Program-made: the position numbers and the translations under genes | Shown here: one piece after another, positions 8,920 to 12,296 of the stretch | Layout of the letters: every line of letters starts with the position of its first letter | How positions within the stretch are numbered: position 1 is the first letter of the stretch | Source: an uncultured Bdellovibrionales bacterium | GTDB lineage: Bacteria; Patescibacteriota; Minisyncoccia; Moranbacterales; UBA1568 | Reading direction: 5' to 3' | Assembly: GCA_964428755.1 (NCBI GenBank) | Contig: CAYRYX010000001.1 | Span: forward strand, 533-31,283 | Length of the DNA stretch: 30,751 bases | The notes under the pieces: generated by a model | Told to the model about the DNA's origin: nothing | Database searches by the model: none | Seen by the model: the letters and a program-made list of their open reading frames with translations, nothing else

Positions 8920-9936
8920 ATGCCAACGAATAACCACAACCTTCTCCTCAGCCGCACGCTTCAATATTTCGGAATCATTTTGATCGTGGCTGCGATGGGT
9001 GGCGGGTATTGGTACTGGAAAAATGCCAAAGCGGCACAGCAGGTGACGGATAACCGTCCGAGCTTCGAGGCGCCGCTCGTAACTGATCTCAATCTGACCG
9101 CAGGACAGGGAACCGCGACCTATTCCCGTGCCGACGGTGCCGATAGGCGAGCGACCGTCACCGACTTCGAGGGACGCATCATCCCGGTCAAACAGAACGA
9201 GGCCCGGTTCGATGGAGCGCGACGGGTGGAGAATCTCAACCCGAAATCGGAGTCTGATTCGGGATGGACTGCTGGCGGTACGACACCGCCAACGGTGAAT
9301 ACCTCCGTATCATTTGGCGGAAAGATGGCGGTATCAGCTACTTTCCCGACGGGAGTGAATGGCTATGCGGCTTCTCGTGCGATTGGGTCAAACTTTCCGG
9401 TCAAATTGAATTCGCGGTATATATCGAATTATATGATTGCGGCTGATCGGGCGTTGACCGGTTCAGAGAGTATTACTGTCTATGTGACCGGAATAGTCGG
9501 CTTGAGCAGTGTGACCTTTTCAACATCAAAGCAATTGACGACAGCATGGGCACGATATGCAAGTGGGGTAAGTACGAATGGGGTGGGGGATGGCAATGAC
9601 TATTTTACCGTGATGCCGGGTTCGAATCTTTCGACTCCGATTACGATATATCTTAGCGAAAGACAAATCGAGGAAGTCACCGGACAGTCCAACCAAAACC
9701 CCTCCGAATACGTCTCGACGAACGTGAAAACTGCGTTTCCGTATCACGGTGCCGGTGTGGATGGTGTGAAATATTTCGACACGCAGAACGGCAATACCGT
9801 GGCAAGTAACGTCGTTACCGAAGTGGCAGGAGCCGCTATCCCAACCGCGACCCTCAAGGGCTACCTCGCGGAAGGATCGCGGACGAATCTCCTTACTTAT
9901 AGTGAAAACCTGAATGATGGACACAAAGTAGGCTGA
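8920..9936 (+). CDS. N-terminal part of a frameshifted surface protein (TM anchor plus phage fibre-like beta domain)
   Basis: ATG 8920 then TM FGIILIVAAMGGGYWYW; TYSRA...EARFDG...VENL and EGSRTNLLTYSE motifs typical of tail/spike-fibre-like proteins; the upstream ORF extension from 8668 is translated REP sequence. Confidence 0.75.
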   Translation: MPTNNHNLLLSRTLQYFGIILIVAAMGGGYWYWKNAKAAQQVTDNRPSFEAPLVTDLNLTAGQGTATYSRADGADRRATVTDFEGRIIPVKQNEARFDGARRVENLNPKSESDSGWTAGGTTPPTVNTSVSFGGKMAVSATFPTGVNGYAASRAIGSNFPVKLNSRYISNYMIAADRALTGSESITVYVTGIVGLSSVTFSTSKQLTTAWARYASGVSTNGVGDGNDYFTVMPGSNLSTPITIYLSERQIEEVTGQSNQNPSEYVSTNVKTAFPYHGAGVDGVKYFDTQNGNTVASNVVTEVAGAAIPTATLKGYLAEGSRTNLLTYSENLNDGHKVG

Positions 9937-9938
9937 CA

Positions 9939-12296
9939 ATGACAGCGAATGCAGCTATTGCACCAAATGGACAAACAGTAGCGGAGAAACTTATTGAGGG
10001 GATAGAAACGGCGACACACCGTGCGTACAAGACAGTTACCAAGGCAGCCTCTCCGTTGCAGTACACGGTGTCGATGTATATGAAAAAATCCGAACGGACA
10101 AAAGGAGGGATCCGCATTGCTGAGAATGGAGAAACGGATAATGCGACGATTACCGTTGATCTTGTAACTGGTTCAACGAGTACAACGACAAGTGGTGGAT
10201 TTACCTCTGCTTCAGGTGCTGCTACTTCGGTTGGTAATGATTGGTGGAGAGTGCAGCTGACTGCTACGACGGTGAGTACGGTTTCGCTGACTGCTTATAT
10301 TATGCCAGCGAATGCGAGCGGGAATCTGAGTTATACCGGAGATGGCACATCCGGGATTTATGTCTGGGGAGCGCAGCTCGAGCAGGCGCCCTTCGCCTCC
10401 TCCTACATCCCAACGACAACCGCGAGTGTGACGCGTGGGACGGACTTATTGAGTTACCCGAGTTCGAATGCCGATCCGACGACCGGGAGCGCGTTCGCGG
10501 AGGTGCAGAGCGAGCATGGACGTCTTGCGAACCCGAACGTGAACACGGCGGCGGTCGCGGTTGGTGGCAATTCCGGGAGATTGATCGGAGCGACTTTCGC
10601 CGCGAATGCTTCCCAAGTGTATGCTTATGATGGCACGACCGCGGTTCAACGTGCGAGCGGAGGTACGTTCGCGACGATGCAGCGGGTCGCTTCGAAGTGG
10701 AGCGGCGCAACTTATTCCGTGTACAAGAATGCGACCTCGGCATCCGGCGCATTTGATGGTGCGATGGCATCCGGCGTGGTTTATATCGGATCATATGGAT
10801 CCGCCGCGTCATCGAACTACGGGACGGTCAAAAACGTCCGCATTTGGAAAAAGGCTCTCTCGGATACCGAACTCCAGAATATGACGAGCACGACGGAAGG
10901 AATCGCGACCTCGGCGGTCAAGAAAACGACAATCGCCAATACTCCAAGCAATACCGGACTCGTCGGATACTGGTCCTTCGAAGATGGGAGTGGCACCAGG
11001 GCGGAGGATTTCTCGCCGACTGGCACCAATACCGGAACCCTTACCAACGGTCCGACGTGGGTGGACGGAAAAATCGGGAAGGCACTCTCTTTTAACGGAA
11101 GCAGTATGTATGTTGATGCTGGTAATGGAACGCCACTTCAAATCACTGGAACAATCACGATTTCTTCGTGGGTAAAAACTACTGACCTGTCAGGAACGCA
11201 GAATAGGGGGATTGCGGCGAAGTATAGGAACCAAACGGGATATGTGAACCAGCGGGCGTATGAGTTCTATCAGAACAACAATACTGATAAGTTTGGGTTT
11301 GCCATTTCTGTCGATGGAACAGGCGTATCAAAGGCGGTAGAAACAACGACGACTATTTCGACGGGGATTTGGTATCATGTTGTGACGGTATTCGTACCAT
11401 CCGAATCGATAAAGATGTATCTCAATGGTGTTCTCGATACTACTGATACGACCTCTATTCCTGCATCAATCAATAACTCATCGGCACCGCTTTGGATTGG
11501 CGCTCAATATGACCTGACGAATTCGGGATTATATTTCCCCGGCTCCATTGACGAAGTCCGAATCTACAACCGCGCCCTTTCCCAATCCGAGATCGCCGAC
11601 CTCTACCAGCAGGGAGGCACGGGGAAAACGACCGTGAACGCGAGCCAAAATAACCAACTCACCTCCGGCCTCGTCGGGCTCTGGAGTTTCAATGGTTCGG
11701 ATCTCTCTGGTACGACCGCCTATGACCGCTCCGGCCAAGGCAATAACGGCACCCTCACGAACGGTCCTTCCGTCTATCCTGGAAAGGTGGGGCAGGCGTT
11801 GAACTTCGACGGGACGAATGATTATGTGAGTCTTCCGGCATTGCCCTCTGTAACGGCTCCTTACTCGGTTTCGTTTTGGATGAAGCCGACCGGAGGCTTA
11901 TCGTCAGGCAATACTGTCGTATCTCTTCGTGGAGCGAATTCCTTTCCAAAGTTTCTGTTAATGACCAACAACAAGTTGCTTGCATATGCTGGCGGCGAAA
12001 AATATCGTTATGGAACAAGAGTGTTTTCATCGAGCGACCTTAATACGTGGTGGCACGTCGTTTTTGTGGTAGCCGATTCTGCTGCTCTTACAAATTGGAA
12101 AATTTATCTGAATGGGATTGACGACACAGGTACTCCTGGAGCCAATACTGGCTTATACTATGATCCAAGCACGTTTGGCACGGTAGGAAATGATATCGCG
12201 GGACAGTATTTTGATGGTGCTCTCGACGAAGTCCGCATCTACAACCGCGCCCTCTCCGCCTCCGAAGTCGCCGCGCTCTATCAGATGGGGAGATGA
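9939..12296 (+). CDS. C-terminal part of a LamG (concanavalin A-like) multi-domain surface protein
   Basis: WGAQLEQAPFASSYIPTT; two full LamG units (LVGYWSFE...IDEVRIYNRALS, LVGLWSFN...LDEVRIYNRALS) plus one degenerate unit (VKNVRIWKKALS); frame is open from 9918. Confidence 0.9.
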   Translation: MTANAAIAPNGQTVAEKLIEGIETATHRAYKTVTKAASPLQYTVSMYMKKSERTKGGIRIAENGETDNATITVDLVTGSTSTTTSGGFTSASGAATSVGNDWWRVQLTATTVSTVSLTAYIMPANASGNLSYTGDGTSGIYVWGAQLEQAPFASSYIPTTTASVTRGTDLLSYPSSNADPTTGSAFAEVQSEHGRLANPNVNTAAVAVGGNSGRLIGATFAANASQVYAYDGTTAVQRASGGTFATMQRVASKWSGATYSVYKNATSASGAFDGAMASGVVYIGSYGSAASSNYGTVKNVRIWKKALSDTELQNMTSTTEGIATSAVKKTTIANTPSNTGLVGYWSFEDGSGTRAEDFSPTGTNTGTLTNGPTWVDGKIGKALSFNGSSMYVDAGNGTPLQITGTITISSWVKTTDLSGTQNRGIAAKYRNQTGYVNQRAYEFYQNNNTDKFGFAISVDGTGVSKAVETTTTISTGIWYHVVTVFVPSESIKMYLNGVLDTTDTTSIPASINNSSAPLWIGAQYDLTNSGLYFPGSIDEVRIYNRALSQSEIADLYQQGGTGKTTVNASQNNQLTSGLVGLWSFNGSDLSGTTAYDRSGQGNNGTLTNGPSVYPGKVGQALNFDGTNDYVSLPALPSVTAPYSVSFWMKPTGGLSSGNTVVSLRGANSFPKFLLMTNNKLLAYAGGEKYRYGTRVFSSSDLNTWWHVVFVVADSAALTNWKIYLNGIDDTGTPGANTGLYYDPSTFGTVGNDIAGQYFDGALDEVRIYNRALSASEVAALYQMGR

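Follow-up and report, generated by a model that had tools for sequence, protein, structure and literature searches.

A surface-protein gene of a Moranbacteria-like CPR bacterium differs between lineages in the cores of its binding modules, and the best overall explanation is, very probably, that these cores are exchanged as cassettes between lineages by homologous recombination with crossovers in the constant blocks between them. Mechanisms of this kind are already known, while this protein family and phylum are new settings for them. The gene (WIN) is located on the + strand of the window, the whole stretch of 30,751 nucleotides that was analysed, and region 8920-12296 reads as one gene of ~1125 aa that is split by a frameshift in assembly GCA_964428755.1 (1.04 Mb, 92% completeness).

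Gene structure and locus

Two open reading frames in different frames (8920-9936 and 9918/9939-12296) cover the region, and orthologues at the same syntenic locus are uninterrupted with lengths of 1093-1134 aa. The preliminary description had treated the region as one gene, which the orthologues bear out, although it is not one intact reading frame as the frames differ at 9916/9917. Synteny around the gene was kept in L016, L018, L014 and L020, with the gene order gltX-M23 peptidase-gnd-pgl, then the gene, a coiled-coil ORF and, further along, GGDEF-PDDEXK. The seven nucleotides ATGCATC were present behind 9916 in contigs of X1, X5, X8 and X9 (X labels denote metagenome runs with Logan contigs) that were otherwise 99.5-100% identical to WIN, and the frame containing them reads ...LNDASWTQS..., the same as in homologue P0004. 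Since four other samples have an undamaged copy of this allele, the 7-nt deletion is read either as a mistake in the assembly or as a null allele of local occurrence. The source sample had a depth of ~3x and the contigs of source-study runs X2, X3 and X4 ended at 9877-9882, with only X2 having one that resumed, at 9917, and the junction 9882-9916 was without a covering Logan contig from the source sample.

The protein is a membrane-anchored surface lectin of five modules, of which the first two are CBM-like beta-sandwiches of the 'head spike fibre' kind and the other three are LamG jelly rolls (Table 1). The D1 model (pLDDT 70-96) matched CBM4/16/22 in Foldseek (CBM4 E = 3e-7), and the D2 match to NF048003 was above the curated cut-off (E = 2e-30, 106.7 bits vs a cut-off of 36) and covered profile positions 29-181/182, the first 28 positions falling upstream of the frameshift. 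Laminin_G_3 (PF13385) was matched above its gathering threshold in 3 stretches (E = 7.9e-54, 182 bits vs a cut-off of 27.6), and LNS/LG jelly rolls were matched by the modelled structure in Foldseek. The structure model of piece B contained four beta-sandwiches, and its low-confidence linkers fell inside constant blocks, the AF2 linker at residues 492-510 of constant block 2 having low pLDDT. PHROG tail and virion proteins matched the protein as well, and its N-terminus was also found in the own-genome paralogues C45 and C29. The gene is a likely determinant of what the bacteria attach to, and a role as an adhesin in host attachment is suggested by the N-terminal anchor in the membrane, by lectin folds of the CBM and LamG kinds and by the literature view of CPR concanavalin-like proteins.

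Table 1. Coordinates of the gene and its parts in the window
Feature	Position	Strand	Basis	GC3
Whole gene	8920..12296	+	ORFs and uninterrupted syntenic orthologues	
Frameshift site, 7 nt missing vs near-identical strains	9916..9917	+	contig comparison	
N-terminal membrane-anchor helix, aa 8-38, ...LQYFGIILIVAAMGGGYWYW...	8941..9033	+	AF2 helix 8-38, pLDDT 64-87	
Constant block 0, aa 21-105	8980..9234	+	93-97% aa identity to P0002, 60-100% to others	0.69
Variable core D1, aa 106-245, CBM4/16/22-like beta-sandwich, cassette type A	9235..9654	+	homologue identities, AF2, Foldseek	0.49
Constant block 1, aa 246-332, up to frameshift	9655..9915	+	97-100% across orthologues, aa 256-300	0.63
Variable core D2, aa 334-465, GTA/phage head spike fibre domain	9918..10313	+	NCBIfam NF048003	0.41
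Constant block 2, aa 466-515	10314..10463	+	homologue alignment; break in X1 contig at 10432	
Variable core D3, aa 516-630, first LamG-like jelly roll	10464..10808	+	homologue identities	0.64
Constant block 3, aa 631-735, covering the D3 end, a linker and the opening strands of LamG D4	10809..11123	+		
Variable core D4, aa 736-870, Laminin_G_3, orphan cassette	11124..11528	+		0.46
Constant block 4, aa 871-965, includes 29-nt motif copy 11550-11578	11529..11813	+	80-100% identity	0.72
Variable core D5, aa 966-1095, Laminin_G_3	11814..12203	+	homologue identities	0.42
Constant C-terminal block, aa 1096-1125 + stop, includes 29-nt motif copy 12225-12253	12204..12296	+		0.70

Constant blocks and cassette types

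Constant and variable blocks were defined from 33 homologues, independently of the GC boundaries in the preliminary description. Among 34 family members, constant-block identity was unimodal (medians 0.55-0.72) and core identity was bimodal (medians 0.26-0.32, with a small mode at 0.7-1.0). Conserved and hypervariable segments alternate as in a mosaic gene, the constant blocks being 55-100% identical and the cores sorting into discrete types, any two of which share <35% identity. The nearest relative differed core by core: D1 was 80-93% identical to P0028/P0018 and 3-37% to the closest scaffold relatives, D2 was 63-93% identical to P0004 and 7-50% to others, D3 was 70-97% identical to P0002, 63-83% to P0003 and 3-40% to others, and D5 was 53-83% identical to P0135/P0136 and 7-50% to others. 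For D4 no relative >50% was found in a set of 5.8 billion proteins and no cassette donor >43% in JGI metagenome contigs, and the core was present at 100% only in near-identical strains (X2, X4, X9, X14, X27).

Constant block 3 was 93-97% identical to P0003/P0004/P0025, and orthologues shared exact runs of 20-47 nt in the constant blocks, a possible RecA substrate. Two G003 paralogues shared only the six constant blocks at the nucleotide level (83-96%), and the L020 scaffold was 80-88% identical compared with 45-60% for the flanking housekeeping genes.

Near-identical DNA at the LamG ends had been proposed as a recombination anchor. The 28/29-nt match between 11550-11578 and 12225-12253 is real, both copies encoding DEVRIYNRAL with 8/10 codons identical and all but one GC3-ending. 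Under genome-wide codon usage the probability of at least 9/10 identical codons is 9e-4, and the C45 paralogue encodes the same peptide with 7/10 of the same codons. The match is therefore for the most part the conserved C-terminal motif of Laminin_G_3 together with codon preference, and alone it is no evidence for an anchor. Read joints between the two copies had 23-47-nt sides and stemmed from other LamG genes, and the 29-nt motif was rejected as the anchor.

Codon composition

The alternation of GC-rich and AT-richer segments noted in the preliminary description is real, and the GC3 profile is not flat. GC ranged from 0.43 to 0.63 in 150-nt windows across the gene and GC3 from 0.20 to 0.80 in 30-codon windows. 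The six constant blocks contained 281/415 GC3 codons (0.68), like the flanking genes (0.59-0.74), compared with 239/537 (0.445) for D1, D2, D4 and D5 together, four of the five cores (Fisher p = 1e-12; Cochran-Mantel-Haenszel by amino acid, chi2 60, p = 8e-15, OR 3.0). GC1+2 was almost flat along the gene (0.45-0.59) and the GC effect is therefore one of synonymous codon choice; amino-acid composition as the source of the mosaic was ruled out by this flatness and the stratified test. The GC3 variance ratio of the 785-aa ORF was 2.55 (median 1.08 and 90th percentile 1.92 for the 522 genome ORFs of at least 250 aa), and since it ranked 24/522 the gene is heterogeneous in GC3 but not unique. The segment boundaries drawn earlier by composition were within ~10-30 nt of the homologue-derived boundaries, except that the supposed scaffold segment 10370-11090 contains core D3.

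Core GC3 was below constant-block GC3 in 8/8 family members with DNA (0.47 vs 0.66, p = 5e-11), with GC3-rich exceptions among the cores including WIN D3 (0.64), L018 D2 and L018 D5 (0.79). The AT-shifted synonymous sites of most cores may indicate a history separate from that of the host-like scaffold. It is possible, though not favoured, that the alternation instead reflects codon selection at conserved residues (translational accuracy) combined with AT-biased drift at unconstrained ones. Consistent with such selection, GC3 in the flanking housekeeping genes was 0.66-0.71 at conserved residues vs 0.60-0.66 at variable ones, and the cores were GC3-poorer than the constant blocks in every family member whatever the cassette type. 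However, the conserved-site effect in the flanks was 0.06-0.08, about one third of the 0.23 difference within the gene, and WIN D3 and L018 D5 are host-like in GC3 yet hypervariable in the family. Codon selection bears only on the cause of the composition signal and not on cassette exchange.

Exchange between lineages

The cassette types of D1 and D3 violated the four-gamete condition, and cassette-type changes on the scaffold tree were 8 above the minimum. AU tests on the scaffold alignment rejected the D1-type-A carriers as a clade (delta lnL 340, p = 1e-6) and also a WIN+P0028 clade (p = 2e-4), while the incongruence of D5 type C was not significant (AU p = 0.195). Cassette types were partly congruent with the scaffold tree, as the observed changes were well below shuffled. 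Between WIN and L019, the D1 core that is shared with P0028 had a nucleotide identity of 0.86, a same-codon fraction of 0.75 and dS of 0.45, compared with identities of 0.59-0.64, same-codon fractions of 0.33-0.42 and saturated pS of 0.75-0.87 in constant blocks 0, 2, 3 and 4, and the tract of high identity ran over 9190-9870. Judged from these divergences, the transfer of D1 is more recent than the scaffold split between WIN and L019. The phylogenies of anchors and cores are thus not congruent, as the preliminary description had anticipated. Its proposal of recombination at domain boundaries is upheld by the incongruent cores and by breaks in the constant blocks, but the anchors are whole blocks of 150-315 bp, each running from the last strand and helix of one domain across a linker into the three or four opening strands of the following domain, and not a 29-nt motif.

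Divergence of the cores in place by accelerated point substitution, through positive selection or local hypermutation and with the constant blocks as structurally constrained parts, is very unlikely. It would fit the conserved N- and C-terminal motifs typical of Laminin_G_3 and the partial agreement of cassette types with the scaffold tree, but core identities are bimodal and not continuous, congruence was rejected by the AU test, identity breaks abruptly inside single contigs, and for D1 the same-codon fractions of WIN and L019 contradict it. The dN/dS ratio within shared cassette types was 0.07-0.17, and the cores are therefore not hypermutating. In-place divergence is also in line with the comparison to L016 and L018, the closest syntenic relatives, in which constant blocks and shared cores matched the housekeeping flanks in synonymous divergence. 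Many differences could therefore be old lineage-specific replacements and not frequent ongoing exchange, and concerted evolution homogenising the constant blocks of close orthologues was rejected on the same equality with the flanks.

Population-level evidence for cassette exchange came from Logan contigs of 2-13x depth, which may be chimeric across shared k-mers and, within one run, may derive from different strains; none of them showed all five cassettes on one molecule. As in a mosaic gene, breakpoints were located in conserved segments (9823-9848, 10432, ~10889 and the tract mentioned above), on short-read contigs. X5 contig sequence had a breakpoint in constant block 1 between 9823 and 9848, and was identical to WIN over 10700-10888, followed by 30 differences up to 11089 (85%) and then by unlike sequence. 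The X1 contig of 1815 nt was 99.5% identical to WIN over 9700-10432 and then unlike. In X8, D1, D2, D3 and D5 were present at 99-100%, constant block 3 was 93% identical and the D4 core was absent, a contig over 10805-11098 having 19 differences before becoming unlike WIN. X6 featured D2 and D3 at 99-100% and D1 and constant block 1 at 85%.

That the mosaic, in the window gene and its homologues, is an artefact of chimeric assembly across conserved blocks of co-occurring strains is scarcely credible. Constant blocks shared by strains are prone to mis-joins, and the shallow source sample and its uncovered junction described above point in the same direction. Against this, two independent samples from unrelated studies, X9 and X14, contained every WIN block at 100%, and the five-cassette combination is therefore not a chimera. 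Cassettes common to different samples were 14-20% diverged at the nucleotide level, which within-sample chimerism cannot produce, and the same architecture was present in 65-494 kb contigs of near-complete genomes.

Machinery and possible donors

The genome had matches to RecA (457 bits) and ComEC (161 bits), predicted components of recombination and DNA-uptake machinery. Two reverse transcriptases were present, both belonging to true DGRs with adenine-specific mismatches of 11/12 and 17/21 (VR/TR). These lend some plausibility to a programmed system within the genome, whether silent-cassette conversion of the pilE/pilS or vlsE type, a DGR or an invertase shufflon, as do the possible in-genome donors represented by the two full-length G003 paralogues and the tandem family members of L019. 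Such a system is nonetheless highly improbable, as blastn and tblastn of the gene against its own, 92%-complete assembly found no copy of any core, neither DGR template matched the gene, no recombinase gene adjoined it, and the closest relatives of the cassettes were in other organisms. Own-genome matches were limited to the LamG paralogues C45 and C29 (35-55% aa identity) and short conserved motifs, and no other sequence matched the cores. A DGR origin of the cores was rejected on the template comparison, and silent cassettes or own-genome paralogue donors on the low identity of C45 and C29. A phage vehicle was rejected as well, the best IMG/VR relatives being only 25-38% identical. The earlier statement that diversification proceeds without a DGR or invertase holds for this gene, although the genome has two DGRs aimed at other genes, and the proposed exchange of modules stands between lineages but not as a programmed switch within one genome.

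The central 115-140 residues of each module form a discrete cassette whose alternative types share less than 35% identity. The data show cassettes being replaced, one at a time or two adjacent ones together, through homologous recombination that brings in DNA of another lineage, the crossovers falling in the constant blocks. Natural transformation is proposed as the route of entry on account of recA and comEC. Many cassette types would be kept circulating by selection for novel or uncommon binding specificities, the candidate advantages being attachment to glycans on the surface of host or partner cells and evasion of phages for which the protein serves as a receptor.

Comparison with known systems

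The literature searched contained no description of cassette mosaicism in LamG proteins of CPR bacteria. CPR concanavalin-like proteins are presumed attachment factors that may mediate attachment (PMC12911398), and the hypervariable gene of PMC6851277 is a different, repeat-based one. Like pilE/pilS, vlsE and msp2, the gene has variable segments flanked by conserved sequences that guide recombination; unlike them it has no silent donors in the same genome that could be found, which those systems need.

Moraxella UspA is a modular adhesin. The gene resembles UspA and the Vaa modular adhesin of Mycoplasma hominis (PMC524362) as a putative adhesin of interchangeable cassettes exchanged between strains by recombination, but it has lectin-type beta-sandwich cores between conserved edge strands in place of coiled-coil or repeat modules.

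In the same kind of organism, presumably under the same pressure to diversify a ligand-binding surface protein, DGRs reportedly diversify proteins on the surface of CPR and DPANN cells (Paul et al. in 2017). In DGR targets ~100 bp are rewritten at adenines from a template repeat, whereas the present gene lacks both a template and an A-biased pattern, and whole cassettes are replaced between lineages.

Neisseria Opa and PorA carry short variable loops (HV1/HV2, VR1/VR2) on a beta-barrel, with multiple loci per genome. Mosaic surface antigens of naturally competent bacteria are reviewed in PMC4534519. The gene resembles such antigens in its alternation of constant framework and hypervariable stretches, in the reshuffling of alleles through homologous recombination, presumably once DNA has been taken up, and in discrete families of variants that are maintained in the population. 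The gene differs in that its variable parts are domain cores of 115-140 aa, that the genome has one full-length locus, and that the carrier is a CPR bacterium and not a pathogen facing adaptive immunity.

In T-even gp37/gp38, conserved motifs reportedly border the hypervariable segments and serve as sites of recombination (Tetart, Desplats and Krisch in 1998). As in those tail-fibre adhesins, in which recombination between the motifs swaps specificity, conserved sequences flank hypervariable binding segments, and D2 is homologous to a phage/GTA head spike fibre domain. Unlike them, the gene belongs to the chromosome of a cellular organism, where its syntenic position is fixed, with five slots in one protein and each cassette forming most of a folded domain, and the closest phage copy is not above ~38% identity. 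Mosaicism of phage receptor-binding proteins in general is treated in, for example, PMC10579305.

Host recognition and attachment of ultra-small CPR/Patescibacteria are largely obscure, and most of these bacteria resist culture; the gene offers a concrete candidate specificity determinant: a chromosomal, syntenic locus with five lectin cores reassorted between lineages. It can serve as a marker for strain-level tracking in metagenomes and as a natural experiment on which parts of CBM and LamG jelly rolls are exchangeable with the fold and inter-domain scaffold kept. One small genome uses two diversification routes, DGRs and cassette exchange, for different genes. A wider reading, tentative and in our view doubtful, is that this is a five-slot specificity locus of CPR episymbionts, in which the boundary blocks are conserved at the nucleotide level partly as anchors and a pool of lectin-core cassettes, distinct in composition from any single host genome, crosses genera. 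If so, cassette reassortment would re-target the bacterium to new host cells, and the locus would be the functional counterpart, in a cellular parasite, of the phage tail-fibre locus.

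Constant blocks and variable cores

A sliding comparison with orthologues divided the adhesin-like gene WIN into six constant blocks (const0 to const4 and a C-terminal block) of 85-100% identity and five variable cores (D1 to D5) of 5-30% identity. Among 34 family members, the identities of the constant blocks were unimodal with medians of 0.55-0.72, and those of the cores were bimodal with one mode near 0.3 and a small mode at 0.7-1.0. The cores are discrete cassette types, and the nearest relative differed for each core of WIN.

Features of the adhesin-like gene WIN, its surroundings and related loci (window coordinates unless a contig or locus is named)
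Feature	Position	Details
WIN	8920-12296	ATG start at 8920
Listed ORF 1	8668-9936	Covers the first part of WIN; frame differs from listed ORF 2
Listed ORF 2	9939-12296	Covers the second part of WIN
WIN N-terminus	aa 1-105	Nearest relative P0002, 93-97% identity
const0	9028-9228	aa 37-103, the stretch with monomer pLDDT below 50
D1		Nearest relatives P0028 / P0018, 80-93% identity
const1	9688-9933	aa 257-338, the stretch with monomer pLDDT below 50
D2		Nearest relative P0004, 63-93% identity
D3		Nearest relatives P0002 / P0003, 70-97% / 63-83% identity
D4		No near relative, all under 50% identity
D5		Nearest relatives P0135 / P0136, 53-83% identity
WIN/L019 similar tract	9190-9870
PemK/MazF-like toxin gene	6989-7378	Between gnd and pgl
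Coiled-coil ORF, upstream	8301-8642	113 aa
Coiled-coil ORF, downstream	12568-13023	151 aa
Hairpin elements	8808-8868, 12384-12507	REP-like, GTCATT...AATCC
C23 DGR	C23:6838-8912	VR 6838-6958, TR 7288-7408, RT ORF 7830-8912
C73 DGR	C73:368-2340	Repeat pair 1805-1915 / 2230-2340
LamG-repeat paralogue	C45:351-3207, minus strand	952 aa
Neighbours of the P0028 family member	L019:1-3360, 7017-13100	Away from the gltX locus

Reading frame and genomic context

The window occupies C1:533-31283 of the source genome (1.04 Mb, 137 contigs, 54.6% GC, 92% complete), where WIN is listed as two ORFs, and the nearest named homologues were in Candidatus Moranbacteria/Moraniibacteriota MAGs. The true start is followed by a membrane helix, and the second frame was already open from 9918, with translation across 9916/9917 giving a single conserved motif, ...NLLTYSENLN directly followed by WTQSRLTMTANAAIAPNG... 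Full-length relatives were uninterrupted at 1093-1134 aa. Contigs from four independent metagenomes (X1, X5, X8 and X9), otherwise 99.5-100% identical, carried seven nucleotides (ATGCATC) after 9916 that preserved the frame and yielded LNDASWTQS, matching the homologue P0004. Contigs from the probable source study (three runs at approximately 3x depth) ended at 9877-9882, and the sole contig to resume, from X2, did so at 9917. Either an assembly error or a local null allele thus accounts for the frameshift, and the species itself carries an intact gene.

The common order of the locus in relatives was gltX, an M23 peptidase, gnd, pgl, the family gene, a small coiled-coil ORF, GGDEF and PDDEXK. 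The syntenic relatives L016 and L018 lack the PemK/MazF-like toxin gene and have pgl directly behind gnd, so the toxin gene is a lineage-specific insertion. Small coiled-coil ORFs were located on either side of WIN, their mutual similarity not being detectable by BLASTP (E = 6), and ORFs of 135-152 aa occupied the equivalent positions in L016 and L018. Hairpin elements were also paired on each side of the gene. Their simple pattern occurred 49 times in the genome, and the hairpin stretches reached 30-150x summed depth in metagenome contigs, so the family is widespread.

Predicted domain architecture

Three Laminin_G_3 stretches were identified by Pfam (E = 8e-54) and a GTA/phage head spike fibre domain by NCBIfam (E = 2e-30) at the start of the frame after the frameshift, the first 28 positions of the profile being upstream of it, and the PHROGs matches were to tail and virion proteins. 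The AlphaFold2 model of the frame before the frameshift contained a confident beta-sandwich at aa 105-255 with carbohydrate-binding modules CBM4, CBM16 and CBM22 as best structural matches, and the model of the frame after it contained four beta-sandwiches, joined by low-confidence linkers, that Foldseek matched to generic LamG/LNS lectin jelly rolls. The protein therefore begins with a membrane anchor, which precedes a pair of CBM-like spike-fibre domains (D1 and D2) and three LamG-like domains (D3 to D5). On the model, each constant block straddles two domains, running from the last strand and helix of one through the linker into the opening strands of the other, and each core makes up the 115-140 residues at the centre of a jelly roll. 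The most conserved blocks, const0 and const1, were 90-100% conserved despite a monomer pLDDT below 50, and their folding may require an oligomeric shaft of fibre type or contact with the following domain.

Codon composition

The preliminary description had proposed a mosaic of GC-rich scaffold and AT-richer cores, and the GC3 profile was indeed not flat, ranging from 0.20 to 0.80 over 30-codon windows (listed ORF 2 at rank 24 of 522 ORFs for GC3 heterogeneity). The constant blocks had a GC3 of 0.68, similar to neighbouring genes, compared to 0.445 for cores D1, D2, D4 and D5 (Fisher p = 1e-12). This gap persisted within amino acids (CMH p = 8e-15, OR 3.0), GC1+2 was flat across the gene, and all eight family members with DNA repeated the contrast (constant 0.66 vs core 0.47, p = 5e-11). 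Conserved residues favoured GC-ending codons in flanking genes too, with an effect of just 0.06-0.08. The low GC3 of most cores may reflect a history outside the resident genome. The proposed GC boundaries coincided with the constant/core boundaries derived from homologues, except that D3, which had been taken for scaffold, is a GC3-rich core. The 28/29-nt repeat noted at the LamG ends is real but is mostly conserved peptide in preferred codons.

A LamG-repeat paralogue on contig C45 with an N-terminal anchor as in WIN had a GC3 heterogeneity above that of WIN (variance ratio 3.17, rank 14 of 522), and the composition pattern may extend to this LamG-only family.

Exchange between lineages

Sequence comparison across the family shows that lineages have traded cassettes, with homologous recombination taking place in the constant blocks. 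All four combinations of D1 and D3 types were present, and on the scaffold tree, built from the constant blocks in concatenation, the cassette types required 8 changes above the minimum. The incongruence of anchors and cores anticipated from the sequence was borne out, as the scaffold data rejected two clades, that of the D1-type-A carriers (delta lnL 340, AU p = 1e-6) and that of WIN with P0028 (AU p = 2e-4); a clade of D5 type C was not rejected (p = 0.195).

The comparison with L019, the locus carrying P0028, is the strongest single result for exchange. The D1 core had a nucleotide identity of 0.86, a same-codon fraction of 0.75 and a dS of 0.45, compared to 0.59-0.64, 0.33-0.42 and saturated synonymous sites in const0, const2, const3 and const4. 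The D1 cassette was transferred long after these two scaffolds split. At a dN/dS of 0.07-0.17 within shared cassette types, the cores show no hypermutation.

Scaffold and shared cores diverged in step with the flanks between WIN and its nearest syntenic relatives, L016 and L018; here the scaffold is vertical and the non-shared cores have been replaced. In the comparison with L020, which carries P0018, scaffold amino acid identity was 0.80-0.88 while that of the flanking gltX, M23 and PDDEXK genes was 0.45-0.60. Larger segments of the gene may thus travel as well, and the whole gene or much of it may move between genera.

The family member on L019 lies between a further protein exceeding 1100 aa and an FG-GAP repeat protein of 2027 aa, in what looks like a surface-protein island.

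Cassette combinations in metagenomes

Different subsets of the window cassettes were found in different runs, the contigs being short-read and low-depth and those of one run not necessarily from one strain. All WIN blocks were present at 100% in X9 and X14, which are from unrelated studies, so the combination in WIN is no product of chimeric assembly. Contigs of X5 matched the window identically over 9848-10888, after which a 468-nt contig carried 30 differences up to 11089 and then an unrelated D4. X8 included D1, D2, D3 and D5 at 99-100% with const3 at 93% and D4 absent, X6 had D2 and D3 at 99-100% beside D1 and const1 at 85%, and a 1815-nt contig of X1 was 99.5% identical over 9700-10432 and divergent beyond. 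The breaks in contig identity were located in const1, const2 and const3.

Mechanism and comparison with known systems

Cassettes are swapped between lineages via homologous recombination inside the constant blocks, probably following DNA uptake, and selection acting on binding specificity probably keeps the exchange going. The genome encodes recA and, on contig C23, comEC, and orthologues shared exact matches of 20-47 nt within constant blocks, lengths that suffice for RecA-dependent exchange as minimal processing segments. The full-length paralogues L013 (C1) and L014 (C21) of the same-genus genome G003 gave six BLASTN matches corresponding to the six constant blocks (83-96%; const1 96% over 222 nt) and an extra short cross-match between two LamG C-terminal motifs, with no BLASTN match between their cores. 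This pair is a ready substrate for within-genome cassette exchange in that organism. No copy of any WIN core was found elsewhere in its own genome (1.04 Mb, 92% complete), and D4 had no known donor.

Diversification without a DGR or invertase had been proposed, which holds for WIN, as no recombinase gene flanks it and the DGRs have other targets, but the genome does contain two DGRs. These account for both of its reverse transcriptases and are genuine, with A in the TR at 11 of 12 VR/TR mismatches in the C23 system, and T in one copy, hence A on the opposite strand, at 17 of 21 mismatches of the 111-nt pair adjoining the RT in the C73 system. A DGR origin of the WIN cores was rejected, as was a phage vehicle, the relatives in phage collections being distant only.

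The WIN locus could offer a way into the study of how CPR bacteria recognise their hosts, and no description of such cassette exchange was found in the literature searched. Its logic is that of the T-even tail-fibre adhesins, of Neisseria Opa/PorA and of the Mycoplasma Vaa and Moraxella UspA adhesins, and what is new relative to these systems is the protein family and the phylum, the presence of five slots that are independent, and cassettes that each comprise most of a lectin domain.
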